From NCBI GenBank assembly GCA_048213135.1, contig PS015210.1, forward strand, positions 1 to 32,677: 32,677 nt of DNA, read 5' to 3'. Each line of letters begins with the position of its first letter. The first letter of the stretch is position 1. Below, in pieces: positions 63-32,665 of the stretch. The DNA is from Reclinomonas americana ATCC 50394 (taxonomy: Eukaryota). Below the pieces are notes generated by a model, which saw nothing but the letters and a program-made list of their open reading frames with translations, had not been told where the DNA came from and searched no databases. The translations under genes and the position numbers were made by a program.

Positions 63-1048
63 CGGAGAGCTTGAGCGCCACAAGATTGGCGAGCAGGCGA
101 AAATCGTGGAGAGGCGAGCACACCACTTGGCGCGTCGCGTGGCCGAAAAGACGCGGGAGAACGCTGCGCGACGGCCCTCGGATCGCGACTACAGCTCCGG
201 CCTGCTGACTTCGTATGATCGAGGCCTGCGACAGTCGGAGGAGATGCGTCGCTGGTACGATAAGAATGTGGCGCCTTCGGAGGAGACGAGCACTGGTGCG
301 CAGCCGGCGTGGATGACCATGAGTGGCGTCAAGTCGCCGACAGTGTCGCAGCCGGAGCTGGGAGAACGGCAATGTTGCGCGCGCACACACTTGGGAGGGG
401 AAAGATGATGCGCATGCTTGGGCGCTCACATGGTGTTTAAGCAGACATGGCATCGGCGGCAGTCACCGAGGCAGCGACTCGTGTGGCACGACCCGTGCGC
501 GACTTGCTCGAGAGACCACGTGCAGTGCCACCGTTGCGTTGTTGATACGTATCGGAAAATCCCTTCTCGCGCACAGACGACTCACGAACACGTGACAGAC
601 GAGTCCACGCCGGTCGCCAGGCAGCACGAGTGTTGCGCGAGTCATGCGCTCCTGAACTGGAGGAGGAACCCAACATTCTCAAGCGCGAAAGCATTCTCAA
701 GCTGTCTCAGGCGCGCACGCAGACCCTCCGCGATCACGGTACTTGCTGTGCCCCATCAATCCTTTGTTCGCACTGCTGCTCACACTGCGGCTCATTTACA
801 GGTCTCGCCGACTACCGCCCCAATCCACCATTCGACATTGCGCCACCGGGCGATCAGCCGCCACGACGCCGAGTACAAGGTTGGTCGCCAAGCGCAGTTG
901 TCATTCTCGCAGACCATAGCGACTAATCTCTCAGTTTCTCCATTCATCAGCGCCTGCAGATCCGCAGCACGTGTACCGTCCACCGCCTCCACCATGGGGA
1001 CTCACGGATCCGTGGGAGGCGAATGCAGGTCGACTGGGATCCAAATAA
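63..1048 (+). CDS. Hypothetical protein, 5'-partial, at least 5 exons
   Basis: Phase-consistent GT-AG exon chain: GELERHKIGEQAKIVERRAHH...GERQ|YMASAAVTEAA...AVP|PRVHAGRQ...LRDH|GLADYRPNPPFD...RVQ|APADPQHVYRPPPPPWGLTDPWEANAGRLGSK* (TAA 1046-1048). No family recognised. Confidence 0.6.
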
Positions 1049-1411
1049 AGTGATGGACGACGGCATTTGGTATCTTCCGGACAACCTTGCACGTTACACG
1101 GCTTTGTTGCCAACGCCACTAACTATCTTTCTGCATTCCGTTGTTGAATTCGGCGTCAAATCCATGCCGCAGTCTTGTAGAAACGCCAGCTGAGGTTCTG
1201 GTGCTCACTCAAGAGGGTGATGCAGCTGTTTGGAAAAGTTGTTGTTGTTATTGCAGCAACCAATTGATGGCAGTGATGGACGACAGCGACACATGCACCA
1301 GCTCCTTCTCTTTGTTTTCCCGCGCGCGCAACACACACACGCACACGCTCCACTGTGCCTCCGCGTCTGCTCCGCACACCCTTTTGCCGCTTTCAGTGGG
1401 TTGAGAGGCAT

Positions 1412-2167
1412 ATGAGTCGCCAGCACCAACGTCCACCCGCTCGTCGCCTCCTCGACGACACAGACGAGGCCGCTGAAGACGACGACGATGCGTACGTGGC
1501 CTCACTGCCCGGCGCTGTGCATGCGTCGGACTTGACAGGCGGCGACTATGACGACGACGACAGCAGCGGAGATGAGGTGGAAGACGAGGAGGTGCGCAGG
1601 AGGAGCCGACCATTTCGCGACCCGCACAACAGCAGCAGCACACCGCGTTTGCCGGCGGCGGAGCGCACGAGGCGGCAAGAGGCAGTGGTGAGTGCGCGCA
1701 CACTGTCTGTCTCTTGCGCACAGTCTCTCATGTGAGGGGCTGTAGGCGAAAGCGGCCAAGGAGTTTTCGATTGCGCCGGCGGTGGATCACGAGGATGGGC
1801 CTGCGCAGCTGTCGCAGCAGGCACTGCGCAGGAAGCGCATTGATACGCTCATGCAGCAGCAAGCGTTGCGTTTGAGAGTTGTGGGAAGAGGGGAAGAGGG
1901 GGGGGAGGTAATATCGAGATATCGAACGGGAATTGGAGAGGGAGAGAGAGAGAGAGAGAGAGAGAGAAGAGAAGAGAACCATGCGGCATGTACAGTGCAG
2001 TGAGGAATATCCACTTGCTGCACGTGAACACCGCGCCACCAAGGCTCTGCTTCCATCATTGTCTTGTGTGTGTGTTTCTCTGTGACTCGTCGCTTTTCCG
2101 CTTTCCTTTTCCTGTGTGCACAGTAGACTCGCGTTGTCTCTCTGCATGACTGCCTTCCTCGTTCGTC
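1412..2167 (+). CDS. Hypothetical protein with acidic N-terminus, possibly membrane-associated; 3' part lost in gap 2168-2632
   Basis: ATG 1412 MSRQHQRPPARRLLDDTDE...RQEAV|AKAAKEFSIAP...MQQQ|AEEYPLAAREHRATKALLPS|FRLALSLCMTAFLVR runs into Ns. Intron phases are consistent and a hydrophobic stretch begins just before the gap. Confidence 0.55.
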
Positions 2168-3025: not shown

Positions 3026-5499
3026 ATGGCGACGCCATCGCCGCCTCCACCGAGGCCGCCTCCCGAGTCGGCGCGTGAGTCGGCGTTTGTGCGACGCGGC
3101 ACTGCGCAGGCACTGTGGGAGGAGACGCGACGATTGCGCAAGGCCTCGGCGGAGACGGAGACACCCTTCACGCGACGCACACGCACTGCACTGATTAGCA
3201 GAGTGTCGCACATTCGCGAGAGGCTAGACTTTGAGAAGAGCAACAGAGATCAGGCGCAGATTCGGCGGAAACGCCTCACTGTCTCCGCACGCTCTGTGAT
3301 GGACATGATGGTGGTCGTCGGTACCGATGAAGATGGCAACACGGCGTTGCGTGCACTTAGAGGGAGAGAGCAAGAGAGAAGGGGGGGTTGGTTTGATACA
3401 GCGAGTGATGATGATGATGATGATGCTGATGATGGAAGAATGTCCGACGTTGATGGTTGTTTCTCACACCCGTGATGGTCTCACTCGCGCAGGTTCAACA
3501 AGCCCCCTGAAAACGAGTACTTTGAAACCAAGGGTGAGGCCACATGCGGCGCGGGTTGATGCTGTTGGTTTTGTTACTCATATCACATCATTCATTTTTT
3601 CGTACAGACATGGCATTCAGATCGTTGAGCTTCAAGAAGATGCCACCGCGTTTTGTGGAGCTCGTCGAATCCGGTTCGTCTCGCCCTCTGATTTGCCTCC
3701 ATACCCATGTTTCTGACTCCCGTCACTGCAGAGCTGTTTGACGAGTTTGTGCTGCAGCTCATTCGCTACTTTTTCGCACTCTTTACGCTGGAAAAGTACA
3801 TTGCCGAGGACACGGAAGCGTTGCGTGCATAGAGTGCGTACTTTCAGTCGAAAAGTGTGAGCTCAAAGATCCTCGTCACCTGCGCAGGCGACGCTGGCTG
3901 CCACCGCAGCGAGTGCTGGACATGGCGCCGGAATCGTGCGAGACCACGATGAATGACGCCTTTGCGATTGCCTCGCGCAAGTACTCGGCGATTTTGCTCA
4001 ACTTTTCCACACCCGCTGCTCGCTACTCTGACGAGTTGCTTTTCGAGGTGCGTTGGGTGGCCAGGGAGAGAGGCACGATATGTAGATTGTGTGGGCACTG
4101 TTTTTCTTGTTCATTAGTGTGTGAGTCGTGGCCCGCCGCTTTCTCATCGCTATCTCTGTTGCTTGTATGTGGGGTGTGGGTGTGGTGGGTGTGTACAGAA
4201 CTTCCATCGCCTCGACCCCGATCCCCGAGAGAACCTCTGCACATTCCGCGCCTTTCACCGTTTCACTGAGCAGAAAAATGTGGGTTATTTGTGTTCAGTT
4301 CGCCCTCCTCTTTTTTTCTGATCCTCTGTTCCTCGGCTTGCACAGCATCTGTACGATATTGTCAAGTTCATCCTCAAACGCACCTTCCGCGAAGAGAAGC
4401 TGTGGCCGGCCTTGGAGGTCGAGCTCGGCGGATTCTTCCGCACCCGCATGTTCAATCTCGACCAGCGACGTCATCAGTCCCAGCAGGTCACCTTTGAGGA
4501 TTTGCCGTACTCGTTCCGCTTTGCACTGCGCCAGTCCGGTGTGGCTGTGCCGACACTCAAGCTCACGCGCTCCAAACTGCGCGACATTATCACGGCCGCA
4601 TCGCCGTTTGTCGTGCAGATGAACGCCTGCAATCGCAAGCTCGATGTGCGTACACTGTGCTCGTGTCTCCCTCTCTCCTTCTTGTGTTGCTCACACACGC
4701 TGCGCGTAACAGCCTCAAGCGCGACCGCCGTCTGCTTCACTGACTCGCCACGATGCGCTGCATGTGGAAGCACGGCAGGTGGGCTCCGCCCTGGAGAACG
4801 CCACGTATCTCGCGCGTCCGCTGTCGGCCTCGAATGTCATCCCGCGTGTCCTCTCGTGTGGTACGCTTCGCGTTTCGCTCTCCTCCCTCTTGCGTGTCTC
4901 TTATTTGTGTGGTGGCCGAGCAGAAATGGACACGGACGTGCTGCGCCGCGTGGAGGAGATGCGCACGGCGTTGCGGCCGTTCCCGCGGGTCGTCAGCAAC
5001 GCAGCGCAGCACCGGCAAGATCTCGCCGCTCGCCAGTCGTCCTCCTCATCGCCCGCGCCACCGCCGCCTCCACCATCGTCAGGTCTCGACGATGGCACCG
5101 ACCTGGAGCGGCCACGGCGCGGCTTTTGCCTGCAAATGTTTTACGGTTGCGTCGCGCGCGCGACCATCCTCTCATTCCTTGCCAACGTGAGGCACTCATC
5201 TTGCTTGCTTGCTTGCTCGTGCAGCCTACCGTGCCGGTCTCAAACGCAAGGCCACCAGTCGCCCCGCCTCCAAGGACAGCCACCACCGTCCTCACCACCG
5301 CACAGCATCCTCCACCGCCACCGGCACCGACGCCCCTCAGCCTCCGAGCGCAGGCCAAGGAGCACCGACGAGCCCACCGGCCAAACCCGCCTCCAAAGCT
5401 CGCAAAGCCGGCAGTCTCCGCTGGCAGTCCAGCGCCGCCTCTGCCTCCCCACCAAGCGGCAGCAAGTCCATCAATGTGCAATCGGGATCACCCGCGTGA
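3026..5499 (+). CDS. PPP1R36-like (protein phosphatase 1 regulatory subunit 36 / PPPI_inhib family) protein, about 8-9 exons
   Basis: Spliced product contains LFDEFVLQLIRYFFALF, KYSAILLNFS...DELLFE|HLYDIVKFILKRTFREEKLWPALEVELGGFFRTRMFNLDQRR, which resembles the PPP1R36 pattern D-x-x-FFE-x-x-Y...IEEE-x-GRLFRT-x-MFN (from memory). Stop TGA 5497-5499. Confidence 0.55.
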
Positions 5500-5560
5500 A
5501 TGTACCATTACAATGCAATCGACGAACCAACCACCTAATCAACACTGTATTGTGATCCAC

Positions 5561-6391
5561 ATGCGCACGCTTACTCACCTTCTCCTCGCGCTCATTGTGT
5601 CGCTGGTGGTGGCCAGCAGCCTCACTGTGTCGGCGTTCAAGCTGCCAGTGAGCATCGACGAGGCCAAGGTGCACGAGATGATGCACAAGGTGCACGACAG
5701 CGTCACCAGTGGCGTGCACAAGCTGATGGAGTCGCTGCATCAGCATCAGCAGCATGAGCCCAAGGCCGCGGAGACTCTCAAGGGCGACATTGAGTGTGAT
5801 GGGTGCCAGATGATGATTGGCTTCCTTGAGGCGTTGCGTGCACTGGAGGAGGAATCACACGCACACGTGTGTCATGACTCTCTCTCTCTCTTACAGGTGG
5901 GTGACGGAGAACACCACTGAGGCAGAGATCTTCGAGTTTGTGGATAAGCTGTGCCCATACATTCCCAAGGAGTATCAGGTGTGTGTGTGTGAGAGAGAGA
6001 GAGAGAGTGCGTGTGTGCATTGATTGATCATTCTCATTTCGCTCGTCTACAGGCGGTGTGCCCGTACATGATCCAACAGGTTGACTGTCTCACTCACATG
6101 CTCACTGTCACCTCGCTCATCTCACTGACTCTTGTGTGTTGCGTGCGCGCAGATGGGCCCCATTGTGCTGTGGTCGATTACTCAGCGCGCCAACCCCAAG
6201 GTCTCGCCCTCTCTCTCTCTTTCGTTGGTGCCTTGTTGTGCTCACTCACCAGTGCGTGCGTGCAGGTGGTGTGCGAGGTGATGCGCCTGTGCCCGGCTCC
6301 GGTGGTCGGCGGCGCCCTGACCATCTCTGTGCCTGTGCCGGAGGATCGCAAGCTGGTGGAGAACAACAATCCGCGTCTGCGTGGCAACTAA
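5561..6391 (+). CDS. Secreted saposin-like protein (SAPLIP, single saposin B domain), 5 exons
   Basis: Signal peptide MRTLTHLLLALIVSLVVASSLTVSA, His-rich pro-region, then the spliced six-cysteine fold IECDGCQMMIGFLEAWVTENTTEAEIFEFVDKLCPYIPKEYQ|AVCPYMIQQ|MGPIVLWSITQRANPK|VVCEVMRLC. TAA 6389-6391. Confidence 0.9.
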
Positions 6392-6518
6392 CGCCTCCCC
6401 CCCGCACTCCCTTCTTCCCTGCCCTCTCCATCTTTGCTTCTGAATTGAATCCCTTACCCCCCGAGTTACACTCGCTGACGAGCCCATTGTCGTTTTCATT
6501 CATAACATGTCGCTCTGC

Positions 6519-10493: not shown

Positions 10494-10638
10494 NNNNNNN
10501 NNNNNNNNNNNNNNNNNNNNNNNNNNNNNNNNNNNNNNNNNNNNNNNNNNNNNNNNNNNNNNNNNNNNNNNNNNNNNNNNNNNNNNNNNNNNNNNNNNNN
10601 NNNNNNNNNNNNNNNNNNNNNNNNNNNNNNNNNNNNNN

Positions 10639-11484
10639 TCACCGCCACCCAATTCCCGATCGCGCTTTCTCGCAGCACGAGGTGCGGGCTCTGCAAACGC
10701 GATTGATAGTGAGTGTCAACAAAGAAGGGAGACAAGAGCGACACACAAATGGCAACCGACCCCGAAACACGCCCGACGGCTGCGACACCATGTCGACAGT
10801 GGCACACTGTGGTGGACGACCACCTGCACTGGCCCGGATGAGCACACACGTACAGTCACTGTGATCCACAGCAACGTAACTCATCGAGTCCGCCGTGCCC
10901 ACATCGAACCGAAACACAAACTCAGCCGCCCGCGAGTCCTCCCACAGCTCTCCGACAGGCGTGTGCACCGCACCACCAATGGTCACAATGTCGCCATTGC
11001 TGCATGCACAACAACAGTCATGCAAGGAAGGGCGGCAAAGGAGGCAGCACACAGTGGGCACACGCAACCACAGCACTTGCTCCTTCACTCGTCGGTCGTT
11101 GACAAACACACCGTTGGTGGAGTCGTTGTCGCGCACCATCCACATGCCGGTGGCGGGCACCAGAGCAAAGGTGGCATGCAATCGGGAAATCATCCGTGGA
11201 CTATACACCGAATCGAATGTTCTGTGACACCGCAGCGAGTAATAAGACACATGCATACGCAAAAGCGTGTCTTGTGTGCCTGTGCGTGTGTGTATGTCAT
11301 GCACGCGCAACAGATCGGCATTGACGCGTCCAATGGTGAATCCATCGCGCAAGACCACCGAGTCGGGAATGCGCGGTGCCGGAGGAGCTGGCGAGGGTGC
11401 TGCTGCTGCGGCTGCAGACGACCCTGCACCATTGGTGCGCTTGCCGACCTTGGGGCGGCCGATGAAGATCAGCCGAGGAGGCAT
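10639..11484 (-). CDS. FHA (forkhead-associated) domain exons; likely the N-terminus of the HBS1-like gene
   Basis: ATG 11484 MPPRLIFIGRPK...FTIGRVNAD|LTFDSVYSPRMISRLHATF...WMVRDNDSTNGVFVNDRRVKEQVL|CNGDIVTIGG shows the FHA signatures GR, SRxHA and STNGxFVN. The last exon (EPAPRAARKRDRELGGG) is open into the gap. Confidence 0.85.
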   Translation of the reverse strand: MPPRLIFIGRPKVGKRTNGAGSSAAAAAAPSPAPPAPRIPDSVVLRDGFTIGRVNADLLRVHDIHTRTGTQDTLLRMHVSYYSLRCHRTFDSVYSPRMISRLHATFALVPATGMWMVRDNDSTNGVFVNDRRVKEQVLWLRVPTVCCLLCRPSLHDCCCACSNGDIVTIGGAVHTPVGELWEDSRAAEFVFRFDVGTADSMSYVAVDHSDCTCVLIRASAGGRPPQCATVDMVSQPSGVFRGRLPFVCRSCLPSLLTLTINRVCRARTSCCEKARSGIGWR

Positions 11485-11711: not shown

Positions 11712-14700
11712 TCATTCATCATCATCAGTAGCAGCAGCAGGAGGAGGAGGTGGAGGAGAGGAAGGCAAAGGAAGAGGCTGTGCTTGCGCTAGCGCGTCCA
11801 CTGCAGCAGCTTGCGGATTCGCCAGTTCTTCTGCTTTCTGCTCCCACGCAGCGCGCAGTTCGGCAGCGCGACGGAGCACCTGCTTGAAGACTTGGTGGCC
11901 GCCCTCGGCACTCTTGATACCCACGCAGCTAATTTTGGTTCGGGTGTGCAGCGGTCGAGGCCGATGTCGACTCTTGGGCGTTGACGACGACGCCGCATCG
12001 CCACCACCGTCGTCCTCGTCCCCCGGTGGCTTCTCTTCCGTCAGCATGGCTCGGGTGAGCTGGTTGCGCGACAGGGCGAACACCACGGGAATGCGGTTTT
12101 TCTCGCAGCTGGCGAAAATCGTCGTCAGAATGTCGTCCAGGCCACCGGGTGCGGCGACCTTCTGCATGTTGGGCGCCATGATCACACACTTGACAGAGCT
12201 GGCACGGCAGCCGCGGGCAATCTCTCGCAAACCACACACGTAGCGACGTGACATGCGCGCCTGCGATCACGACCACGCTGGCGTGAGCCTCAACGACTGC
12301 TGGCACGCACACAGTCACACGCAACACTCCCCGAGTACCTTGACAGAATTGCGCTCGCGATTGCGCAGTTCATACTTGCGCAGCGTCTGCAGCAACTCCC
12401 ACACCATGCTGTCGAGATCGGCGGCCAGCTCCTGTCGCACAAATCTACCACGCGCACGTGAATATGCGTTTTGTCGGCGACAGCTCGTTCGCAAGCGGCA
12501 AAGCACGCAACTCTCGCACCACCATATTGTGGTACAGCCGGCAGTCGGCATCGAGTGGCAACGGCGGGAGCTCCGACGCCTTGAATGGCACTGCCTTTTC
12601 TTGCATCTTTCGCACGCCTACATCATCACCACTGGCACTGCTCTTCTCGCCACCTGCGTCGTCATCGGCATCATCACCGCCGCTGCCGCCGCTGCTGCTG
12701 CTGCTGTCGGCATCCGGAGGCAGCAGTCCAGCCGCCACAGCTCGTTCACGCAGCATTCTGTGTTTTTTCCGATTCAGTCAACGCGCATCCCCTCTGTGAG
12801 GTGTTGGGTCACTCACCGAGCTCGCTCCGCGCGGATAATCTTTTTCAGCGGCGTCGGTCGCTTCTTCTTGGTCTTCTCGATCACCACTTGCGCGTCGGTC
12901 AGGAAGCGACGGTACTTGCGCTGCAGGGCCAACAATACATGTTATTTTGAGGCAACAGTGGAGATGACAAAAGGAGCGGCACACCATCTTGTCCTGTCGC
13001 GAGACGGCCTCCTCGGTGTCGGAGAACGCCGATCGGCCACCCGTGGGAGCCGGTCGTCGAATACGCAACACTGTGACTGGTGTGGCACTTGAAGATGATC
13101 CTCCCCCAGCAGCCGCAGTTGCCGCAGTTGCCGCGGTTGTCATGGTGGTGGTGGTGGTTGTCGTCGACGTGGTGACGGCTGGTCGCTTGAGGCCCCACGC
13201 GTTGACAGGTGGCGCTCGTCCGGCCGTGACAGAGGGCACTGGAGAGGAGGCTGAGGCTGCCGGCTGCACCGCCCGTCGCGGCACTGATCGCGCCCGAGCA
13301 GCAGGAGGAGGCGTGGGTGGTGGTGTGCGTGAGGACGAGTCGCGTCGCTTGCCAATCACCATGACGTCGAAGAGTGTGAGGGCCTCGTTGTACTTTTTGA
13401 CGGGGGCCACCACCTGCGAAAAAAACAATGGTGAGTGAGCTGCACAGTGTGCTGGTGCACGCCACGCAAGAGCCACGTAACCTTGGGTGCTGCTGCTGCT
13501 GCCGCGGGTGGCGGTGGCGGCAGCGGCTGCGATTGTGGCGCCTCAGCGACGACCTCGCCCACTTGCTGCTGCTTCTGCTTCTTCTTCCGCTTCGCAGCGC
13601 CACCATGCAGCTTGTTGAACTGCTCGGCCTCGCGCTGCGCTCGCTTCATCTCCTCTCGCTGCTGCTCCAGGCGCTTCCGCTGCTCCTCGTAGTGTCGCGC
13701 TTGCTCCGACAGCAACAGATTGGTAACGGGAGCTGCAGTAGCAGCAGTGGCGGCGGTGGCGGCGGTGGCAGCTGTGCGTGGCCGACCCGGCGACGACGCG
13801 CCCTTGCCTGCCAACAGAGCGTCGCTGTACGAAGGTGGCCGAGTGGCCGACGAGGGCCGTGGCGGCGGTGGTNNNNNNNNNNNNNNNNNNNNNNNNNNNN
13901 NNNNNNNNNNNNNNNNNNNNNNNNNNNNNNNNNNNNNNNNNNNNNNNNNNNNNNNNNNNNNNNNNNNNNNNNNNNNNNNNNNNNNNNNNNNNNNNNNNNN
14001 NNNNNNNNNNNNNNNNNNNNNNNNNNNNNNNNNNNNNNNNNNNNNNNNNNNNNNNNNNNNNNNNNNNNNNNNNNNNNNNNNNNNNNNNNNNNNNNNNNNN
14101 NNNNNNNNNNNNNNNNNNNNNNNNNNNNNNNNNNNNNNNNNNNNNNNNNNNNNNNNNNNNNNNNNNNNNNNNNNNNNNNNNNNNNNNNNNNNNNNNNNNN
14201 NNNNNNNNNNNNNNNNNNNNNNNNNNNNNNNNNNNNNNNNNNNNNNNNNNNNNNNNNNNNNNNNNNNNNNNNNNNNNNNNNNNNNNNNNNNNNNNNNGGA
14301 GCGACAATCGATGGCACGACAGGTGGTGCAGGAGCAGGCGCGGGAACAGGCGACGGCTTGGCGGATGCCGTGCCGGCCAGCACCGCGGCGAACAGCGGCC
14401 GGGCGGGTTTCGGCGCCTCCTGAACAGTCACTGGAGCGGTGGCGGCAGCAGTAGCAGGCGGAGCGGGTGTGTTCTCCGTCTTGCTGTTCTTCTTCTTCTT
14501 CTTCTTGTTCCTGTTCTTGATCTCTGGTGGCGGTGGCGGTGGCGGCGGTGGCGGAGGAGGATGCAACGGGGCCGATCGCGGTCGAAACTCAACCACCGAC
14601 GCCACATCCAACGAGGCCAGCGATCGCGACACCGGTCTCGGATTGCGTCGCAACCAGTCGCCGACGGCCTCGTCCAGCGACAACGCCGTGGCCAGCAACG

Positions 14701-15851: not shown

Positions 15852-16389
15852 GATGATCTGAGGAGTGCGACGTTTGGTGCAGGACACCGACTTCGTTCTC
15901 TCTTCTGCGCAAGAGCAAGGTGCGCGTCTGGGGAATGATCGCGCATGCACGCATACAGACAGAGCATGCTCGTTTCTCCACTGCCACTGCTCCACGCAAC
16001 AAACACGCACACTGTTAGTCTTGCTGACAACACAAACACACTTCTCTCCTTCTTCTCTTCTCCTCTCCTTCTCCTCTCCTTCTTCGTCTCTGCTCATCTG
16101 TGCTCTGTCGTGACACACCTGCACTTCTATACACACGCACGCACACACACTCAACACGACTGTTGTCGCACACTGACGAAAAAAACGGAAAAAGATGCAC
16201 CTCTCTCTCTCTCACACACACACACACTCTCACACACACACACTCATGACCTTACACACACGCACATGCCACACACGACACACGAGAGATTCTCTTGTCT
16301 CTTGTGCGCCTGTGACGTCACGCTGACGCACATCGATTACGTCATCATCACTCGTCTCTCACACTCGCCCTCACAGCAGCAAGGTTATC

Positions 16390-17691: not shown

Positions 17692-20393
17692 ATGGTCTCT
17701 CGTCGCCTTCTGTGCCTCGTGGCAATGTGCGTGCTGCTGGTGGCACTCTCCACCTCGGCCACTCGTGTCCAAATCAATGACTCGGAGGCCATGCAGACGC
17801 GCGCCTCCTCAGTGAACACTGCCAATCTGCAGCTGCGCCAGGTGCAAGGTGAGCACCAAACAGAAAGAGAGAAAGCAAGAGACTGTGTGCGGAGAAAAGC
17901 GCACAAAAAATGCTCACTCTCTCTCACTCTCACTCGTGCATGTCAGTGGTTGTGCGACACGGTGATCGCACTCCCACCATGCCCATCAAGGCCCATCCCG
18001 TTGATGTTGCGCGCACTCACATCATCATTCATCTTTGTGATCATATTTGACCCCCATATGTAGTGGTTCTGTGATGAATCGCGCGTGCTGGCCGAGGACG
18101 ATCAGGGCGCAGCTGGAGTCACTCTGCACCCCGATCGTCTCTTCCGTCTGGCGTACTTGGAGGGCATTGATCATTTGCACGGGAACTGCAGCACGGGCCA
18201 GCTCACCAGTCTCGGCTACTCGCAGCATGTGACGCTCGGGCAGCGCATGGCGCGACAGTATGTGCAGACGGGATTCCTGTCGCCGTCGCTGTCGATGAGT
18301 GAGGTGTATGTGCGGAGCACGTCGATTCCGCGTACGCAGGCCAGCGCGCAGGGCTTCCTGCAGGGCATGTATCCGCCGACGACCCCCGCCGGTGGAGCCA
18401 TTCCGCTCATTCCGATTCACTTGGTCGACGATGATGTGGATGTTGCGTGATGCGGCAAGAGAGAGAGAGAGAGAGGGTGGTGTGAGACTAGGTGCTCACT
18501 CGCGATCCTGCAGCCGATGCACATTAACCAGAATGTGTGCCCGCGTGTCTACGAGGCCTATGTTGGTGGGTGGGGAGGAAGAGAGAGGAAGAGGGAGGGA
18601 AGGACGAAGAGTGACATGTGTGCCGGAGAAGCAGTGTGGGGGCGTGCTTTTGTATGGTCTCTTGTGGCTCGTGAGTGACATGTTGCAAACACTCTGACCT
18701 ATGCTCGTGCTTCTCTCTGTTCCTGCTGGTTAGTTGTGCCTCAATTATTCTTGCGGTTTGCATGACCTTGCTGCTCAGTTGTGAGTATTTCCGTGCCCCT
18801 CTCGACTTTGTGGGGAAGAACGTGCCTTCCTTCAGTCCTCTACTGACACCACCACCCGCAGAAATGTTCCTGCACAGCTCGCCAGCGCGCACCCGCCTGC
18901 TTGAGTTGATTGCGCCTTACACTTTCGAGATCATGAAGATCTTCCAGACTGGTGAGTGCCTCTCATCGATTCGTGGTCTCCCTTGGCAGTTTCTCACCCT
19001 GCGCTCCCCATCTGCAGACGATCCGTTCGAGGTAGACACCCCGCTCTCCTCCACAACTCTCTTTGTGTGTTGCTGCTGACCCAGTCAACTTCCCGCCAGG
19101 GCATCATCGCGTACGACAACCTCAAGTGCCGCACCTGCCACAACTTGCCGTACCCACCGGGCGTGACGCAGAACATGTACAACGCGCTGGAGAAGGCCTT
19201 CAACGAATTCACTGTGCTCGAGTTCAACTCCACCTCCTTCTCGCTGTCGCCGTTCTACACCGAGCTCCTGCAGAACATGCAGGCCGTCATGCGCGGCGAT
19301 CCGAAGCAGTTCAAGTTCCGCCTGTATTCGGTGAGCAGTGAACGGGGAGAGTAGTAGTAGTTGGTCTGGTGGTCGCTGTGCGGCGACTCACCTACGACGC
19401 CTGCAGGGACACGACACTTCGGTCGGCCCGCTGCTCGTGGCTCTCGGTGCGTACGACGGTATCTGGCCGCCGTACGCGTCGGATGTGACCATGGAGCTGT
19501 TGCAGGACCCAGCTGGTGAGGAAGAAGAGAGGGGGAAGAGGAAGAGAGGGAGAGAGGATGCCGCTTGTCGCATCTCAGCGGCTCTGCCCTGCTCGTTGTG
19601 CCAGTTCTTGTTGTTTCAGTCATTTCTCTTCTTGCTGTTCGTGTTCTCTGTTCCTTGTTTCGCTGCATTCTACCTGTTGCTCTTTCTAATTTTCCGCTTT
19701 TCTCTTCCTGCTTTCTGCTTTTCCTCGTTGCCTCAATGCATTCTGTCTGCTTCTTCCACTCCGCCATTCGCGCTCTTTCTCCTGTGCTTACTCTTCTTTC
19801 CTGCGCTCCTCTCTTCGTGCTCTGTCTTAATTGCCTCCGATGCGTACAGCGTGTCTCTCCTCTATTCCTCATGCGCTCTTCTTTTCTCGTCTTTCACTCT
19901 GCCGTTCGTGCTCTCTCCTGTTGCCTGTATGTGTGCTGCTTTTGTTGCTTTCTCTTAAGCTTGCACTCTGCACTTTGTGCTCCACCTTGTTTGCCCCCGC
20001 TGTGAACTGCGTGCTCTTTCATTGGTGTTCTCTCTAAACTTTGCCTCGCAGTATTCTGCATCTTGCCCTTCTTTTCTCATCTTCCACTCCGCCCTTTGTG
20101 TTGCCTCCCCCTTGCTTCCATGCTCTCTTTCTCCGCCCTTCTTCTCAATCTGTGCATCCACAGACTCGCAATTCTACGTGCACGTGACGTACCGCGGCAG
20201 CGACCTGCCACTGCCGGCGTGCGGCAACTCGGCCCTGTGCACCTTTGCTGCCTTCCAAAAGGCCCTCACTCGCGTGATCCCCGCCGACTTTGCGCAGGCA
20301 TGCAAGCTGAAGAACCCGCTGCTGCTCGACTGGGAGCACTACCGACCGGCACCGGCTGGCTCGCCCGTGCTGCACCGCGTGCGCCGCCCATAG
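17692..20393 (+). CDS. Secreted/lysosomal histidine acid phosphatase (His_Phos_2 branch), about 9 exons
   Basis: Signal peptide, VQ|VVVRHGDRTP catalytic motif, GQLTSLG, VYVRSTSIPRTQASA, FRLYS|GHDTS (HD motif), WPPYAS and C-terminal cysteines. TAG 20391-20393. Confidence 0.92.
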
Positions 20394-20538
20394 AGACAGC
20401 GTCAGCAATTACGCCCCTTCTTTTGTTTTGCGCGAGAAAGTGAAACCGCCACTGCATCATCACAACAACAGTGTGCTCGTGTTCACTCTGGATGAGCAAC
20501 GGGAGAGCCTTAAAATCACACACGCACACTCTCTTTTC

Positions 20539-22722
20539 TCACTTCTTCGAGCACACGTAGATGTAGTGCATGTTGGGGAAGTCCTTCTCTTCCGGCAGCA
20601 CGGTGCCAATCGACGGCTTCGCCACGGAGAAGTTCTCCACCGTCCACCCGTACTCGGGCTTGTCGACGTACGGCAAGCGCGAATCCGGCTGCCCGTACGT
20701 GATCATGATGAACACGCCGCCTGGCTTGAGCACGCGTGTGATCTCCGCCAGCATGCGCTCTGACTTGGAGTTGGAGCTCTCGCCGCACTAGAGGACACAA
20801 AAGGTGAGGGCGGAAAAGGGAGGGAAGGCAGGGAGGGAGGAGAGACGCACCAGCACGGCGTCGAGTGTGCCCTTGTCGACCACCACATCGTAGGCCTCGT
20901 GCACAATCGACGACATGTCGGTGCAGTCGAGCACCTCCCATGTCAGCTCCGGTCGCTTCGAGTACTTTTCTTGCATGGCCCGGATGCACACTGATGAAAT
21001 GTCCACATTGTGAATGCGCTTGTAGCCGTCGTCGTACATGTCCTCGGTCATGCGCGAGTTGCCGCAGCCCACCATCAAAATCTGGCAACAACAAATGGGA
21101 TGAGTGTGAGGACAAGGGAAAGGGAAAGGGAAGGGGAGAGGAGAAACTATACCTTGTGCGCCGGCTTGAGGTACGGTTGGAGGTACTCGCGCAGCGCGCT
21201 CCACTTCTGGTACCAGTCTGCAAAAAAGGGCATGAGAACGAAAGCCGATAAGGGGAGATAAAGGCGGAGAGGGACAGTGAGAAGAGAGAAGTGAAGGGAG
21301 AAGAGCAGAGGGAGAGAGGTAGAGGAGGCGAGATGAATCGATTGAAAGACGAGATGGTGAAGGAAGAGGATGAAGTGAGGAGAGAGCAACAAGGGAGAGA
21401 TGCGGAGGGGACAGAGAGCAGAAAAGAGAGAAGAGAGAAAGGCGGAGAGAACGTGAGAGGGAGAGGAAAGAGGAGGAAGGAAGATAGGATGGAAGAGGCA
21501 AGAAGAACTTGTGAGAGAAACGAGTGCCGATGGAGGAAGAGGGGGGAATAGAGCAAAGGGAGAAGGAGATAAGAAAGATGGAAAGGCGGAGTGAAAGTAT
21601 GGAGTGCGCACAGAGAACACTGGATAATGCAGAGGGGCAAAGAGAGCAGGAAGGGAGAGAGAGCAAGGCGGAGAGACAGAGACAAGAAGAATGGAAGGAG
21701 AGGCGGAGAAGAACTTGAGAGAAAGAGAGAAGGAGAAAAGAAATGGATGGAAGGCGGAGTGCAAGAATGGGAAGAACAACGGAGAGAATGCAGAGGGGCA
21801 AAGAGAGCAGGAAAGAGAGAGAGAGCAAGGCGGAGAGACAGAGACAAGAAGAACGGAAGGAAAGGCGGAGAAGAACTTGTGAGAGAAACGAGTGGAGTGA
21901 AGAGGGGGAAGCACAAGGGAGAAGGAGACAAGAATGGATGGAAAGTATGGAGTGCGCACAGAGAACAACGGAAAGAAGGCAGCGAGAGAGAGAGAGAGAA
22001 AGCAAGGCGGAGAGACAGACGAGAAGATGGAAAGGCGGAGAAGACCTAGTGAGAGAACTGAGTGTGGAGAGAGATAACGGAGTGAACGAAGAGAGAGAAT
22101 GAAGAGAAGAGCAAGGGAGACAGCACAAACGATGGAGAAGAGAGCAAAAAGTCCGCGCAGATTACAACAGTACGGAATTGCATGTAAAACGGCCCTCCTC
22201 TCCCTTGCCCCCCTCTCCCTTCCCCCCCTCCCTTGTCCCTCCTCCCCTCTCTTCTCTCACTCAGAGTGTGTTCTATTCTTGCAGTCTCCCGCGCACACAC
22301 ACACTCGCACTCACCAAAGGGCTCCGGGTCCCTCCTGTACCGATCTTGCCAGTACTCTGCGTCGCCGTATCTACAAACACAAACACACACGAAAAACACA
22401 ACCAAACACACACGAAAAGGCGACAGACAGCAAGAGCAGTCAGTGATACAAGAAGTTGACAGTTGGGCCAAACAAACATATCATGTCGCACATCAAACTG
22501 TGCGCGCGCGCGCGTGTTCTCTCTTTGTCTCTCACGCTTGCACACACGCACGCACACACAGAGCGACGTGACAACAACAAGAGAGAGCGGTGAGAGAGAT
22601 GACGCGATCACACACACAAACAAACACCCCCACACTTGAACACGCATGCAGCTGCTCTCTCTTTCTTTCTTTCTCTTTCTCCGTGTGTGTGCGTAATGAG
22701 CAGGCGCACGCAACTTCGCCAT
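20539..22722 (-). CDS. Class I SAM-dependent methyltransferase, EEF1AKMT4/ECE2-N/METTL13-N type, 5 exons
   Basis: MAK|YGDAEYWQDRYRRDPEPF|DWYQKWSAL...|ILMVGCGNSRMTEDMYDDGY...NVDISSVCI...YDVVVDKGTLDAVL|CGE...RVLKPGGVFIMITYGQP...HYIYVCSKK*. The first coding exon is only 8 nt (22715-22722). Confidence 0.9.
21490..22075. repeat. Degenerate purine-rich repeat array inside the 1.1-kb methyltransferase intron
   Basis: Recurring blocks: AGCAAGGCGGAGAGACAGA (~21662, ~21823, ~22001), AGAAGAACTTGTGAGAGAAACGAGTG (~21501, ~21869), GAAAGTATGGAGTGCGCACAGAGAACA (~21593, ~21941) and AATGCAGAGGGGCAAAGAGAGCAGGAA (~21626, ~21787). Confidence 0.85.
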
Positions 22723-23306: not shown

Positions 23307-25172
<1,866 letters not shown>

Positions 25173-26326: not shown

Positions 26327-29300
26327 AATCGGCAGTACACAGAGGTCAAAACTTTTGCAAAGTCGACCCTGCGCCGCGGCAACACCAAAGAAAGACCAGC
26401 ACAAAATGACGCCCACACACTTGAGCGTCCCCGTGCAAGCCGGTGTTGCCGGGTCTGTGTGCCAATCATCATTCGCCGCCACCACCACCACCGCCACCGN
26501 NNNNNNNNNNNNNNNNNNNNNNNNNNNNNNNNNNNNNNNNNNNNNNNNNNNNNNNNNNNNNNNNNNNNNNNNNNNNNNNNNNNNNNNNNNNNNNNNNNNN
26601 NNNNNNNNNNNNNNNNNNNNNNNNNNNNNNNNNNNNNNNNNNNNNNNNNNNNNNNNNNNNNNNNNNNNNNNNNNNNNNNNNNNNNNNNNNNNNNNNNNNN
26701 NNNNNNNNNNNNNNNNNNNNNNNNNNNNNNNNNNNNNNNNNNNNNNNNNNNNNNNNNNNNNNNNNNNNNNNNNNNNNNNNNNNNNNNNNNNNNNNNNNNN
26801 NNNNNNNNNNNNNNNNNNNNNNNNNNNNNNNNNNNNNNNNNNNNNNNNNNNNNNNNNNNNNNNNNNNNNNNNNNNNNNNNNNNNNNNNNNNNNNNNNNNN
26901 NNNNNNNNNNCACGCGTCAGTCGTCCAATGGCAACAAACGTCTCTCTAGCTCCGTCAGACTCACCAAGTGCACAGTGGGTGCGCTAATGTATCCATCAAT
27001 CGTCGGCAGCAGCGTGCACTCCCACGACGTCTCCTGCTCACGCAGCACTCTGGTGGTCACACCGCACACCACCCAGCATGAGGTGTCGAACACCACACGG
27101 GCTCGGACCGCACCGTGACGCATGCGTCGCAGGGTTTGCTCGCGAGCCGCTGCACAGGCAGAGTGAGTGACGCAAGGGCTCTCTTCCACTCCCTCATCCC
27201 CTGCCCCCAATTCTCCGCACCAGCCACTGCGTTCTTGCTGACAGTCGACAACAAGTCGCCCGAGTTGCCTCGTCCTCGCCCGGATGGTGGCTGCCGATCG
27301 GGTCCATCGCCCTCGCCGAGAACGACTCCTGGGGGGAGAGCCACTCGGATGCGCATCAACAGCGGTGAGCTTACTCGTCCGCGCACCGGGAAACTGAGCT
27401 CGGCCGTACACAGGGCCTGTGCGTGTCATGTAGATGGTGATGGTGAGAGGCTGCAAACGCAATCAAACAAAAAGAACAGGATCAGCGCAACTGGCAGCAC
27501 AGTCGCCAGATCGATGGGATAATCAAAGTGATAGAGCCGAGTGTCGTCCGGCCGCCTGAGAGCCACATGCAGAACCGCACGAGAAGGCGAATGTAGTATG
27601 GGTTCGTCATTCGGCGACACGAATTGCAGATGGTGACACGCCGAGATCACATCGTGCCGTCTCAAAAGCTGTGCGCAAACACGATGGTCGGCACCCAGCA
27701 CACGCACACCGCATCGACCACCACACCCAATACCTGTCCAACAGCGGCCTCGGCCGCCTGAGAGGACTCGGCTCGCACATGCGGCGAGTCCACCTCCAGG
27801 TGCATCGACGCCACTTGCATCGGCAGGCGGCTGTCGAAAGTGAGTTTCGATTGCAACATGGTACCACTGTGCGCAGAGAAGAGAGTCAGTGTTGGTGGCT
27901 GGGAGGGGAGAGGGAGAAGAAAAGAAAGAAAGAAAAAGACTCACGCTTGGTGGGCGTAGTAGCCGCGCACGGCGAAATCAAAGGGCTCCACAAAGGTGAA
28001 TCGCACACTGGTCTGCGTCGTGTCAATCACGTGGCCGACGGACGAGTAGCGACACACTCGAATGATTAACTGGTGGAGGAGATGTGGAGGGTAAGGCATT
28101 TTCTCTTCCTAGCATGCACAAACAGGCACGATCGGGGCGCAACAGTATTGACAGGAGCCTTTGGTCGTCGTCGCTTGCTCACTGGGGCGGCAGCAGTTGC
28201 GGCAGCCGACGTCGGTGTGGTGATGGCAATCGAAGGCAGCGCAGGCTTTTGTGATGCACGACTTGCGCCGCCAACCACAGCGTCGCTCGACTGTGCGTGT
28301 GTTTACACACAAGGGTGAGTCAAAAGATGCTCGTCTCGCCCATTAAACAATTCGTAGCGCACCCTGTGAAGCGCCGTCGAGCTCGGCAGCATGCCTTCGT
28401 CTGCGCCGGCAACCCCCGCGGGTGCCTCTGTCGAGGAATGCGCTGAACTGCCGACCGGGTTCGCCGACGCAAACAACTGGCCGGACAGGGCACGCATCAC
28501 GGCCGGTGCTGCACACACGTGAAACAGAGAGACTGGGTAAGGGATCATCACAAATGGTATGGGTGGCGGTGATGATAAACACTCAACGGTGCGTCAGCGA
28601 GCCCCCAGCACCACCGCCTGCACCGCTACCGCTGGCGCCACTGCCGCCAGCACCACCACCACCGCCACCGCCAGCAGCAGCGCTACTGCCACTCATGCCG
28701 CTGCTGTTCGGACCGCCGGACCCACTGCTGCTGCGACCCGCGGTGACCTTTCGCGCTGCGCCACCGCCTGCAACAGAACCACCGGCAACGGCCGCGGCCG
28801 ACGACAGGGACTCATCTGAGGCGTCGACCTTGAGCGAAAAGCGCAAGCAAGCACCCCGTTCCAGGGCACCGAGGTGCACAGAGAGCAGTGTGCTGGGCGG
28901 ACTGCGAATGGTGGAGCGCACACTCGACAGAATGGTGCTCGGACCGCCGCCCTCCAGAATCGTCAGGTCCCCCATTTCGGAGCCTTCCGACGCGGAGACC
29001 AGCAGGCGCGAACCAGCCTCCAGATCCTCCTGCAAGTGCAGCACAAACTGCACGAACCCCGAGTGGCCGGCAAAGAACGTGTCTGTGGTGAGGACGCCAA
29101 CAAAGGGTAAGAACCATAAGAATGAGAGAGAGAAACAGATATATGAGATAGCGCTCAGGACGCACGTTTGTCGCACGGCAGCTCGAGCACGTAGGGTGGC
29201 GTGGCCGGTGCAATGACAAAGTGCACGGTTTGCGGCTGGCTCAGAATCTGCACAAAGTGCAGCATGCCGAACTCGAGAGCCACACGCTTGGCGGCGTACG

Positions 29301-31702
29301 AGCCCACCAGCGTGCCACCACCCTTGATGCACACCACAGTGATGGCGTGTGGCTGCAACACCACATTCTGCGCCACCAGCTCCTGATCGTACGGGACGGT
29401 CGAGGAGGTGTGTTGGGGCGAGAAATCGACCGGCAAGGCACGCAGTTCGCGCTCGTCCAGCATGTTTTCCGTCAGTCGCACCACGCTGACGCGCACGTTA
29501 TCGATTGGAACGGGCTGTGTGCGGGAAGAAAAGCGTGAGCATAATATTCTGGCGCGCTAGTGCAGGAGATGCACTGGATAGTTGGTGACGCAACGCAGGG
29601 GAAGCTGGAATAAATGTGCAGGTGCATCTCAAACTCCTCCTTGGCCTGCGTGTGGAAAAACGACTTGCCGTCCTCACCGGTGATGGCGTGCAGTGCCAAG
29701 TTCGGCTGCAAATCGCGCACCACAGCTGCAGTGGTGGAGAAAGGCGTGAGAGATGCAAGAAAGGAATGCATGCATGTAGAGACACAATATAGAAATGGAC
29801 GCAACGACGAGTGAGCACGTCGTGTGCCACACGTGACATCTCGCTAAAGTACTCCTGTCGCTGCCGATCCTCGGCCGCCAGCGAGTGCAGCAGACTGATG
29901 CACGTCAGCACGTACCTGATTGACACACGTCGGAATGAGTGACAAAACTGCGTTCATGAGATGGTGTGCACGTGATGGCACGCAACTCGGCATGGTGATC
30001 GAGTCGGTACTCGCACAGGGCCAACTTGATTTGCGTCGAGTGCACCAGTTCGGTCCAACCATTGTGCGCATAAATGGCGCACGTGGACTTGTACAGATGC
30101 TCGGCGTCCTCGTATCGCCGTTGTTTGCTGTGCACACAAGAGAGAAGAGAGATGAATACACACCACATGACGTCACGAAGGAAAACAGCACGTACACATG
30201 CATGTCGGCAATGTCGACACTGAGCATCGCACTGAAGCGGTGTCTGCCAGCTTGTGTGAACTCCACCTCTGCCGCCTTGGTTAGCAGCTGCGCAGTGCAT
30301 CCGCATGAGTGAGGAGGAAAGATAGCCTCTATTGCACGTAGAACACACGCACCATTGCCTGCTCGTCAACAAATGCAAGATCGGTAAGGTGTGGCGTCAC
30401 GTCCAACACAATCTCCGCCGGCGGCGCAGCTGCAGAGGCAGCCAGAGCTGTACGACAGACAGTGAGAAGAAAGGCATAACGTATCGCCACTGGTGACGTG
30501 AGGAGACGCACATCGCGGACTCGCACTGGTGGACGAGAGCAAATCAGTGAGACTGTCCTGTCGCAGCTGCGCCAGCCTCGGTGGAAGGCCACGACTCGGA
30601 CTGAACGACTGCGCCGCGTCGCTGGCGGCACTCTCGCTCTCTGTGGGACTCGTGCGCGCGCCACTCGACGCTCGTGAGGTGCTGTCGACCGTGGCACCGG
30701 CTGCGGACATTTCGTCGGCCAATTCGTACAGCTACGCAGTGCGAATGAGGAGGTTGACAACGCATGGTGCATTACACCCACTGCACCTTGTTGCGTGCGA
30801 GTAAGTATGCGTGTCCACACACGGCGGCCACACGCTGCATCCTGGTGTACGGCTTCAGTCGCTGCACCAGACTGATACACGCACGGTACGTCCACAGCGT
30901 CGCTGTCTGGTCGCCCTGCAAGTATCACCCCCGTTCAGGGCACACGCACGGTCACAACCGAACTGGATACTGCAACGCACCACTTTGTTCATGATTCGCT
31001 GCCGGAACGAGTGAATAAACTCCATGCCCATGACGGCTGCATCGTTCACCAGGCCCATGTGTAGTTGCAGCTGTGTGTATGCGATTGAGCGGCGGGCATG
31101 AAAAGAGAAAGCAAATGGCAGGCACACACACAAACCTCAAAGATGCACGCCCGAATGTATTGAAAGAACTCGGCCTCGGCAATCACACGCGCATAAATGC
31201 GTGCGTGGTAATCAATGTCATGAGTGCGCGGATCCGAGAAGAGGATCATCGGCGACTGAATGCACGCCGAGTCACCACCGAACGTAGGAAAACCTGCACT
31301 CTGCACGTGAGGAGAGTGTGTCGGAGAGGAAATGACAATCGCAATTATTGTCGCACCCGCCGATTCCGCCGCCGCCACTGTCTCCATGTACAGCCGCAGC
31401 GCCGTATCAAACGCACCCACCATCCAGTACGCATTGGCCATGCATTCCTGCATGTCCGTGAATGAGTGCGAGAGAAAGAGGAGGAGGAGAAAGAGCGAGA
31501 GAGAAACGGAACATTGAGCGCATAGTAGCGCGACCACATGCGTCCCGACTCCAACCGCGAGTCCTGCAACACCGTGGCAATGCTGGCCGCAATACGGTCG
31601 CACCGCTGCGACAACGACGCCGCCACACGCTCATAAATGTACTCGGAGAGCAGCGACGGCCACCCCGCTGCCTCGGGCGCACTCGGCGAGATGCGGAACA
31701 CG
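26327..31702 (-). CDS. TRAPPC10: TRAPPC10/Trs130 (TRAPP II subunit), middle and C-terminal exons; exact 3' end uncertain (gap 26500-26910)
   Basis: About 20 phase-consistent exons, including RLESGRMWSRYYALN|ECMANAYWMVGAFDTALRLYME, EAEFFQYIRAC, FTQAGRHRFSAMLSVDIADMH...YEDAEHLY...YAHNGW and the C-terminal WVVCG...LLPTIDGYISAPTVHL. Secure down to 26965; a further LCVLP exon near 26327-26370 is tentative. Confidence 0.75.
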
Positions 31703-31975
31703 CTGCACCAGCCGTGAGCCATGCACAATGACAGCAAAGGAGACAAGAANNNNNNNNNNNNNNNNNNNNNNNNNNNNNNNNNNNNNNNNNNNNNNNNNNN
31801 NNNNNNNNNNNNNNNNNNNNNNNNNNNNNNNNNNNNNNNNNNNNNNNNNNNNNNNNNNNNNNNNNNNNNNNNNNNNNNNNNNNNNNNNNNNGAGAGACCT
31901 GTGTATTCTCATCGAGTGTGGTGTGTGCAAAACAGAGACAATGCGCTCGCTCTTTCTCACTCTCTTTCTCGCACA

Positions 31976-32665
31976 ATGCTGGCCAGTGCAGCGCCCAACT
32001 CACTGGTGGTTCCACTGAGACCACATGTGGGAGGTATGCACGCGCGTGCGTGCGTCTGTCTGTGCCTTGCCTGTCTCTCACACTCTCTCTCACACAGTGA
32101 TTGATGACTCGCACTTGTGGGAGCTCGTGGAACCAATGGTGAAGCGCGGTCTGCCGCTCTTGTCGCGCAAGTTTGTGCTGCAGAATGGCGCTGAGCATGT
32201 CACAGAAGGAGTTGCGCGTGTGTGTGTCTGAGAGAGAGTGTGTGCATTGTGTGATTGATTGATTGTTGTGTCACGCAGGTGAGCTTTGACTTTGTGCAAG
32301 TCGCCGAGCTCGACTATATGCTGTACACGGACCCGGCGCGTGACAGTGACGACAAGTACTTTCGCATGCCGCTCTGCTATCTCTACGTGCTGCAGTGTGA
32401 GGTGCGCGCGCACAATTCTCCTTCCTTGTCCATCTCTCTGTCTCTCGCGGCCTCATGCGCGCTCGTTCCCGCAGTCGCCGCAAGTGTTCAAGGCCGAGAC
32501 CAATACCAAGCTGAAGAACTGGGTCGCCAACATCTCCGCTTTCACCGAGTACATTATCTTGTATGTGACGCTGGGGCAGACGACGGAGGCGTCGTCGTCG
32601 CAGGAGAAGGGCTATCGCAAGGTGTTTGACAGTCTGAAGAAGGATTTCAGCAGCAAGAAGGAGCG
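31976..32665 (+). CDS. TRAPPC10: TRAPPC10/Trs130 N-terminal exons (4), on the opposite strand to the rest of the gene
   Basis: MLASAAPN...HVG|VIDDSHLWELVEPMVKRGLPL...EG|VSFDFVQ...YFRMPLCYLYVLQCE|SPQVFKAETNTKLKNWV...EYIILYV...KVFDSLKKDFSSKKER matches the Trs130 N-terminal layout. It ends at a phase-2 GT donor at 32666. Confidence 0.78.

Follow-up and report, generated by a model that had tools for sequence, protein, structure and literature searches.

A candidate class of 5' splice sites, GTTGCG(T/C), displaced by one base from the ordinary donor in a stretch of Reclinomonas americana DNA

Donors that pair with U1 small nuclear RNA (snRNA) in noncanonical registers are reportedly known in human from the work of Roca and Krainer in 2009 and of Roca et al. 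in 2012. The present study deals with a recurrent donor sequence, GTTGCG(T/C) (GTTGCGY, where Y is T or C), in a stretch of 32,677 bases of Reclinomonas americana ATCC 50394 (contig PS015210.1), which was analysed as a whole and is called the window below. In human cells, the shifted U1 register and the register with a one-base bulge at +2/+3 have been experimentally validated (Tan et al. 2016, PMC4856993). In that study, 68 sites are predicted for the bulge +2/+3 register and 51 for the +3 register, and all validated noncanonical registers together account for 1.5% of 201,541 sites.

The window donors are like these human sites in that the donor equals the consensus with one nucleotide added after the GU, so that the downstream G and U would pair one position late. 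Where positions +2 and +3 are both U, the bulged base is ambiguous; cleavage stays at the GU. Such registers are rare in human, whereas GTTGCGY makes up 14-35% of the window donors; it is one fixed sequence, stands beside an ordinary class of equal strength and avoids G as the last exon base. Suppressor-U1 evidence supports the human registers, sequence analysis the window class.

A second group of related systems consists of lineages with altered donors (preprint 10.1101/2022.06.08.495308). According to this preprint, the U1 5' end of Entamoeba is changed to (A)ACAAAC and matches GUUUGU(U) donors, Mastigamoeba balamuthi has a U1 with ACGUAC and GUGCGC donors, and Thecamonas and the Mamiellales prefer C at +4 while keeping the standard U1. 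As in Entamoeba, U stands at +3 in a large share of the window donors, and three of them read GTTTGT, each behind an (A/G)AG exon end (17444 and 24966 on the plus strand, 31135 on the minus strand). In contrast, the preprint describes one near-universal consensus in Entamoeba (88-90% of introns) and an intron-poor genome, whereas the window shows two consensus classes in different registers in an intron-rich genome. A single atypical consensus in nearly all introns was not what we found: the share of GTTGCGY ranged from 11/76 to 23/66, with 22 GTG[CA]G donors and AAG|GT-type donors beside it. The GCG core of GTTGCGY resembles the +4 C preference given there for Mastigamoeba, Thecamonas and the Mamiellales. 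Mastigamoeba is listed with 60.7% G+C and 3.4 introns per gene, as compared with 58.2% G+C (N excluded) in the window, where the motif ends in T more often than in C. The GYGCGY and GTGCGY donors of the Mamiellales and Thecamonas have their closest counterpart in the ordinary GTGCGT/GTGCGC class of the window (11 curated donors), which has the same core and C at +4; unlike for the window, no GTT-inserted class is mentioned in the descriptions consulted for these lineages, sequence logos and supplements set apart.

In a literature search at the title and abstract level, no paper describing GTTGCG or GUUGCG donors was found among the matches listed, which concerned primers or unrelated subjects; the logos and supplements of genome papers may already show the motif. 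What would be new is the size of the share (14-35% of the window donors) that is taken by one fixed displaced sequence coexisting with an ordinary class.

In a preliminary description of this DNA, GTTGCG(T/C) had been listed as a donor at 23 coordinates, together with five variants having the same shift. The motif was present at all 23, on the strand given, and the five variants were in place as well (GTTACGT at 10880 and 13481, GTTTCGC at 15778, GTTCCGT at 31512 and GTTGAGT at 28587). The whole window contains 34 copies of GTTGCGY, where dinucleotide shuffles lead one to expect 14.72 (standard deviation 3.65), and this number was reached in 0 of 100 shuffles. Copies of GTTGCG with a purine as the next base number only 7. 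When the copies were sorted by gene orientation, 28 were found on the transcribed strand (1984 GT sites) and 6 in antisense (1637 GT sites). No such asymmetry was displayed by GTGCGT (28 sense, 21 antisense) or GTGAGT (19 and 22), and GTT[ACT]CG[CT], with 10 sense copies and one antisense copy, provided independent support for the displaced class. GTTTGT is also biased in the window (28 sense, 2 antisense), an asymmetry that may partly reflect T/G-rich introns.

Among the 21 GTTGCGY sites for which a codon phase could be assigned, 11 are in phase 2, 7 in phase 0 and 3 in phase 1. As all three phases are occupied, the reading of GTTGCGY as a coding motif was rejected. Phase 2 is over-represented among these donors (11/21), and G occupies position -2 in 11 of the 23.

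The use of the motif as a donor was examined with a dynamic-programming gene finder of our own, in which codon usage, intron length and the acceptor and branch motifs were scored, while donors were scored as GT only; codon usage was self-trained from five seed exons. In this donor-blind form, 11 of the 76 introns predicted on the right strand started with GTTGCGY, which was thereby the commonest donor hexamer (GTGCGT was chosen 6 times and GTGAGT 4 times). As 28 of the 1,984 sense GT sites carry the motif, the corresponding binomial tail is about 1e-8. Sixteen control classes of GT-heptamers, each with at least 12 sense copies, were chosen 0-2 times each under the same conditions. With a bonus of +3 nats, GTTGCGY was chosen at 18 of its 28 sites, and the controls at 4/21 at most. 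The displaced variants GTTGAGT (28587) and GTTCCGT (31512) were both chosen donor-blind.

Once a donor model had been self-trained, GTTGCGY opened 15 of the 79 introns. In addition, a curated set of 66 donors was assembled from the 23 claimed sites, 30 of the 65 other donor-blind predictions (35 were dropped as doubtful) and 13 hand-placed donors. Depending on the set, GTTGCGY thus accounts for 11/76 (donor-blind), 15/79 (self-trained) or 23/66 (hand-curated subset), that is, 14-35% of the window donors; the earlier estimate of about a quarter of some 80 donors lies between these values. The donor-blind finder often cut exons short by several codons, at a GT in the same phase: it placed donors at 7202, 6869 and 1592 where curation gave 7190 (cgg|GTAAGT), 6857 (cag|GTGCGG) and 1688. 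Its list of odd donors is therefore inflated. At least 10 donors that it had misplaced were subsequently moved by hand.

Two junctions were fixed by homology. In the importin-alpha gene, the homologue P0010 is aligned through residues 258-437 on positions 24116-24658 and through residues 438-562 on 24732-25157, so that residues 437 and 438 abut without a seam across the 73-nucleotide (nt) intron opened by GTTGCGT at 24661-24667 (plus strand). No other GT is found within 15 nt upstream, the site was a donor-blind choice, and the predicted donor at 24661 is confirmed to the exact base by homology. In the saposin-like gene, the exon downstream of the 64-nt intron that starts with GTTGCGT at 5833-5839 (plus strand) matches positions 17-38 of the 38 positions of SapB_1 (E value 8.6e-6). 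Since this exon begins at position 17, the first 16 positions must come from the upstream exon, which carries a CxxC; 5833 is the sole in-frame GT after the CxxC codons and the full model is open. Here too, homology confirmed the exact position of the predicted donor.

The preliminary description had regarded junctions of the SBP2, FHA-domain and methyltransferase genes as pinned by protein context in the same manner. The models with the donors at 12511 (SBP2), 11068 and 11311 (FHA) and 22714 (methyltransferase) are open, GT/AG-correct and keep the frame, and the independent pinning held for importin and saposin only. No family match was obtained from single exons for the 35-residue SBP2 exon, for both flanking FHA exons or for a 36-residue exon of a TRAPPC11-like gene. 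More generally, hand curation yielded multi-exon models for nine genes or parts of genes. Every one is open and obeys the GT/AG rule, with introns of 58-151 nt save for those of 344 and 1097 nt in the methyltransferase gene. Sixteen GTTGCGY sites fall in such models. The 18 fully resolved GTTGCGY introns all end in AG with an open frame at the junction, whereas 1865, 15520, 15678 and 27491 are weak or could not be resolved as introns.

The grammar of the class was then established on the 66 curated donors. At +3, 31 of them have T, 26 have G, 7 have A and 2 have C. A conserved G is found at +5 in 27 of the 33 donors with G or A at +3 and at +6 in 26 of the 31 with T at +3; this contrast follows in part from the selection, since the motif itself defined 23 of the latter 31. 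The base after this G is T or C in a ratio of about 2:1 in both groups (17:8 at +6 in donors with +3 G/A, 20:8 at +7 in those with +3 T). GTTGCGY fits the description of an ordinary GTGCGY donor with one extra T, as had been proposed. The sequence expected for a bulged register, in which one extra nucleotide follows the GU and everything downstream is displaced by one position, was found.

The exon side gave a different picture. On recount, the last exon base is G in only 2 of the 23 GTTGCGY donors, so the link between this class and non-G exon ends stands. By comparison, G occupies -1 in 18 of the 22 GTG[CA]G donors (Fisher test, 7e-7), in 23 of the 30 donor-blind predictions retained unchanged (9e-7) and in 35 of all 43 other curated donors. 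At the 23 sites, position -1 is A in 8, C in 7, T in 6 and G in 2, and position -2 is G in 11, C in 6, A in 4 and T in 2. A trade-off between exon strength and intron strength had been invoked in this context; it does not explain the non-G exon end, since the GTG[CA]G donors are equally intron-strong and keep their -1 G.

On the intron side, GTTGCGY is stricter than the phrase "ordinary donor plus T" implies. GTTGAG and GTTGCG stand in a ratio of 1:23, versus 11:11 for GTGAG and GTGCG (Fisher test, 5e-4); with the most conservative count, 5:11, the difference is not significant. The motif extends weakly further into the intron, with G at +8 in 13 of 23 and C at +9 in 11 of 23.

The introns themselves look ordinary. 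The 18 fully resolved GTTGCGY introns measure 58-147 nt and, like their neighbours, appear to end in a CTCAC-like branch region followed by CAG; a CTCAC-like motif is visible in most of their 3' ends. We predict that they are ordinary short GT-AG introns of the U2 type. The 5' splice site of U12-type introns has the consensus (A/G)TATCCTT. All 23 sites read GTTGCGY, unlike this donor, and the U12 type was rejected.

Taken together, the enrichment, the strand bias, the donor-blind choices and the two pinned junctions make it very probable that GTTGCG(T/C) is a genuine donor class, as predicted. For its recognition, we favour the following scheme. GTTGCG(T/C) would be the intron-side consensus of the organism, GT-GCG(T/C), displaced by one U, and the standard U1, followed by U6, would read it one position out of register. 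In a shifted register, the intron G+1 would fill the slot of the last G of the exon; alternatively, one of the two U's would be looped out. In either out-of-register mode, the exon end need not be G. Once the class is taken as real, out-of-register reading by the ordinary snRNAs comes close to an even chance. The complete statement, namely a real class that is read in this way by standard U1 and U6, is tentative and falls somewhat short of even. Which RNA or protein reads GTTGCGY is wholly inferred.

Several observations weigh against this scheme. All of the evidence comes from one window of 32 kb with about 14 genes. In the fully unsupervised predictions, the -1 contrast is weaker (G in 2 of 11 GTTGCGY donors and in 31 of 65 others, P 0.10); finder errors dilute this set. 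Codon position would lead one to expect 6.0 exon-end G's among the 21 phased sites, and 2 were observed (P 0.035); in phase 0, 6 of the 7 exons end in A or T, third codon positions being 24% A+T (P 0.001). Neither register model predicts this depletion of -1 G or the excess of A/T in phase 0. The shifted register would call for A at -1 and C or A at -2, a prediction that fits the observed bases weakly, with a likelihood about equal to that of the background. As for the bulged register, an exon-side pairing left unchanged would retain the exon-end G of ordinary donors, which is not what was seen; a simple looping-out of one U, with U1 unchanged, is hence disfavoured by the loss of -1 G. Furthermore, GTTGAGT should pair better than GTTGCGT with the standard U1, yet it is the rarer of the two (1:23, or 5:11 in the most conservative count, which is not significant). 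Finally, a branch-plus-acceptor tail was found downstream of 13 of 27 GTTGCGY sites and of 594 of 1863 other GT sites, a contrast that in this crude pattern test is no more than suggestive (P 0.09), and a crude ranking of acceptors site by site was uninformative.

The alternative that survives best is a dedicated reader: a second U1 snRNA, whose 5' arm has an extra A and a G opposite +5 and is complementary to GUUGCGU, or else a lineage-specific change in a protein or in U6, so that two 5' splice-site codes would operate in one genome. The strict consensus of the class, in which the base ahead of the conserved G is almost always C (1:23 versus 11:11), speaks for such a reader, although the definition of the class by its motif accounts for part of this strictness, and the conservative count of 5:11 versus 11:11 is not significant. 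G at the exon end is not only lost but avoided, as though this reader paired differently with the exon, and other GTT donors are common, T standing at +3 in 31 of the 66 curated donors. Co-evolved U1 molecules have a precedent in Entamoeba and Mastigamoeba, whereas in Thecamonas and the Mamiellales, where C is favoured at +4, the standard U1 is kept (preprint 10.1101/2022.06.08.495308). We consider this alternative possible and, overall, rather unlikely; for a class taken as real, a dedicated variant reader gains somewhat in weight, to roughly one chance in three. Its most specific form, in which (A/C)AG|GTG(C/A)G(T/C) and N|GTTGCG(T/C) would be parallel codes and the latter would be read by a U1 paralogue having a 5' arm one nucleotide longer, is unlikely and is put forward with corresponding reserve.

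A quite different explanation is that the donors have been misplaced, the introns starting at other GT or GC dinucleotides nearby and GTTGCGY occurring close to exon ends for another reason, for example as an intronic splicing enhancer or through a bias at intron starts. An in-phase GT lies no more than 40 nt from at least 7 of the 23 sites and was sometimes preferred by the donor-blind finder (claimed site/alternative: 18006/18000, 32211/32199, 28143/28182, 29986/29971, 29805/29832, 11068/11071 and 5833/5794), and of these alternatives only 5794 is excluded, by homology. Eight of the 23 claimed sites were never chosen by the finder, even when trained (533, 18006, 32211, 15520, 15678, 22714, 27491 and 28143). 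Moreover, the GTTGCGT at 12325 lies 13 nt inside an intron with a GTACTC donor and an AAG exon end, so that the motif can occur just downstream of another donor. Against these points, no motif is common to the alternative GTs, but the heptamer keeps returning at precisely the position that preserves the frame; no further in-frame GT is available in importin or saposin; and 11 sites were chosen without any donor information, as opposed to 0-2 per control class. The GT at +6/+7 of GTTGCGT itself was also considered and rejected as the true donor, being 5 nt out of phase; in addition, no acceptor listed for the self-trained model is followed by the AG that it would need, and GTTGCGC, the form found at 7 sites, contains no second GT. 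Misplacement of the class as a whole is very unlikely.

Descent of these introns from a mobile introner family with its own donor, as copies or old remnants whose motif would be shared by ancestry, was rejected in its recent form and is highly improbable altogether: the top named relatives of the importin are pelagophytes, a group in which introners are reported, and the motif extends weakly past position 7, but the interiors of the 18 introns, compared all against all, share only simple, low-complexity matches of 9-10 nt (best E value 0.011), the lengths vary, the 3' ends are ordinary and diverse, and neither terminal inverted repeats nor target duplications were seen by eye (no repeat finder was run).

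The individual sites are now described by gene. In the unknown gene A, on the plus strand, GTTGCGC at 374-380 opens a putative intron of 71 nt (374-444); it was a donor-blind choice with a different acceptor, and the frame of the 71-nt model is open. The second site of this gene, GTTGCGT at 533-539 (intron 533-598, 66 nt), is weak: the curated model is open and obeys GT/AG, but the finder did not choose it. Gene B (plus strand) contains four GTTGCGT donors, all chosen donor-blind. The one at 1865-1871 has an acceptor that could not be placed, because the intron enters the N gap at 2168-2632. The others open introns of 147 nt (3346-3352, in an open model of 10 exons), 68 nt (3820-3826, chosen in passes 1 and 2, model open) and 79 nt (5146-5152, with G at -1 and a model open to the stop codon).

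The saposin-like gene also contains a mini-exon of 27 nt (6053-6079, plus strand), encoding AVCPYMIQQ, which brings a conserved saposin cysteine and ends in the donor CAG|GTTGAC; the gene finder missed it. In the histidine acid phosphatase gene, likewise on the plus strand, GTTGCGT at 18442-18448 (intron of 72 nt) was a donor-blind choice and its upstream exon matches His_Phos_2. The GTTGCGC at 18006-18012 (58 nt) is ambiguous: the model is open, and the finder preferred an in-phase GTTGAT at 18000, 6 nt upstream. The same holds for GTTGCGC at 32211-32217 (plus strand, intron of 68 nt) in the unknown gene Z, with an open model and an in-phase GTCACA preferred 12 nt upstream.

On the minus strand, the FHA-domain gene has two predicted donors. 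GTTGCGT at 11062-11068 (intron of 69 nt, G at -1) was chosen donor-blind and its upstream exon corresponds to FHA positions 14-53 of 67; an in-phase GT lies 3 nt upstream and may be the donor instead. GTTGCGC at 11305-11311 (90 nt, model open) was adopted only after donor self-training. In the SBP2 gene (minus strand), GTTGCGT at 12505-12511, opening an intron of 67 nt, was a donor-blind choice, with no other in-phase GT from -14 to +29 nt, and the variant GTTACGT at 13475-13481, behind an AAG exon end, opens an intron of 68 nt in an open, hand-placed model. A further GTTGCGT that had not been claimed lies at 12319-12325 (minus strand), inside the intron that starts AAG|GTACTC at 12338. This copy may serve as an alternative donor that shifts the frame, or it may show that the motif can be placed closely behind another donor.

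The unknown gene X (minus strand) has a GTTGCGT donor at 14788-14794, chosen donor-blind, with an intron of 72 nt, and two candidates at which the motif is present: GTTGCGT at 15514-15520, whose intron enters the N gap at 14870-15431, and the weak GTTGCGC at 15672-15678, for which AAG is the sole acceptor. Upstream of the gene, an unclaimed GTTGCGT lies on the sense strand (15994-16000, minus strand), with ...CTTGCGCAG about 90 nt further on, and may start an intron in the 5' untranslated region.

In the methyltransferase gene (minus strand), GTTGCGT at 22708-22714 follows a first coding exon of 8 nt, ATGGCGAA, and opens the 344-nt intron; this exon is too short for homology, and the complete open frame reads MAKYGDAEYW... 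The 1,097-nt intron of the same gene (21218-22314, minus strand) is CT-rich, with imperfect repeat units of about 200 nt.

The large gene at 26917-31722 (minus strand) is probably TRAPPC11-like, to judge from a weak match to Foie-gras_1 (E value 0.014). GTTGCGT at 29588-29594 (intron of 80 nt, model open) was a donor-blind choice. Those at 29799-29805 (80 nt, model open, in-phase alternative at 29832) and 29980-29986 (71 nt, in-phase alternative at 29971) were adopted after self-training, and the exon upstream of the latter gives a weak Foie-gras_1 match (202-242 of 257). The candidate GTTGCGC at 28137-28143 (74 nt) is frame-consistent and ambiguous, the trained finder having preferred an in-phase GTGAGC at 28182, 39 nt upstream. 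Another candidate, GTTGCGC at 27485-27491, with an intron of about 85 nt, shows the motif and a CTCAC...CAG tail and was not chosen by the finder. The variants GTTGAGT at 28581-28587 (79 nt) and GTTCCGT at 31506-31512 (65 nt) are the two donor-blind choices mentioned above. A full phmmer search with a 116-residue exon of this gene against 1.84 billion representatives gave 4 repeat-like matches and no orthologue, and a word-based protein search gave nothing for a TRAPPC11-like exon or for a histidine phosphatase exon.

Altogether, the window carries about 14 eukaryotic genes on both strands, with many short introns (about 5-6 per gene), and 8 runs of N (2,511 N in total). Importin-alpha, an HBS1/eRF3-like GTPase, SBP2 and the saposin-like protein were found, and FHA-domain, MLF-like, histidine acid phosphatase and class-I methyltransferase genes were recognised. 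The SBP2 gene (11848-13824, minus strand) matches 7zjw_B with an E value of 1e-13; as SBP2 is the SECIS-binding protein 2, the organism probably makes selenoproteins. The top match of the importin exon in a collection of 5.8 billion proteins is 79% identical, and its top named relatives, at about 70% identity, are pelagophyte and diatom stramenopiles. A metagenome scan with this exon returned 54 loci, 70% identical at best, with no close relative among them. The proteome appears to be very divergent or poorly sampled. The 5' exons of the importin gene could not be reconstructed; long (CT)n/(GA)n microsatellites occur at 23799-24113 (plus strand) and elsewhere, and several of the eight N gaps lie inside introns. 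A scan of the window with Rfam gave no match at the gathering score, and 5 weak microRNA-like matches with no snRNA at E values up to 1.

Work on the tolerance of U1 and U6 for diverse 5' splice sites and on the co-evolution of snRNAs with these sites has relied largely on human minigenes and on parasites with few introns. If the class is real, a free-living, intron-rich organism with a fixed, one-base-displaced site in about one seventh to one third of its donors, obeying its own exon-end rule, would constitute a natural experiment, which would distinguish register slippage that carries a large share of splicing from an evolved second U1. If the paralogue reading is true, U1 would have gained one base and at least a quarter of the donors a corresponding one, so that one genome would in effect contain a second "major" U1 system. 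Many of the exons of this organism, a large fraction of the total, would be annotated wrongly by gene finders that had been trained on GTR donors.

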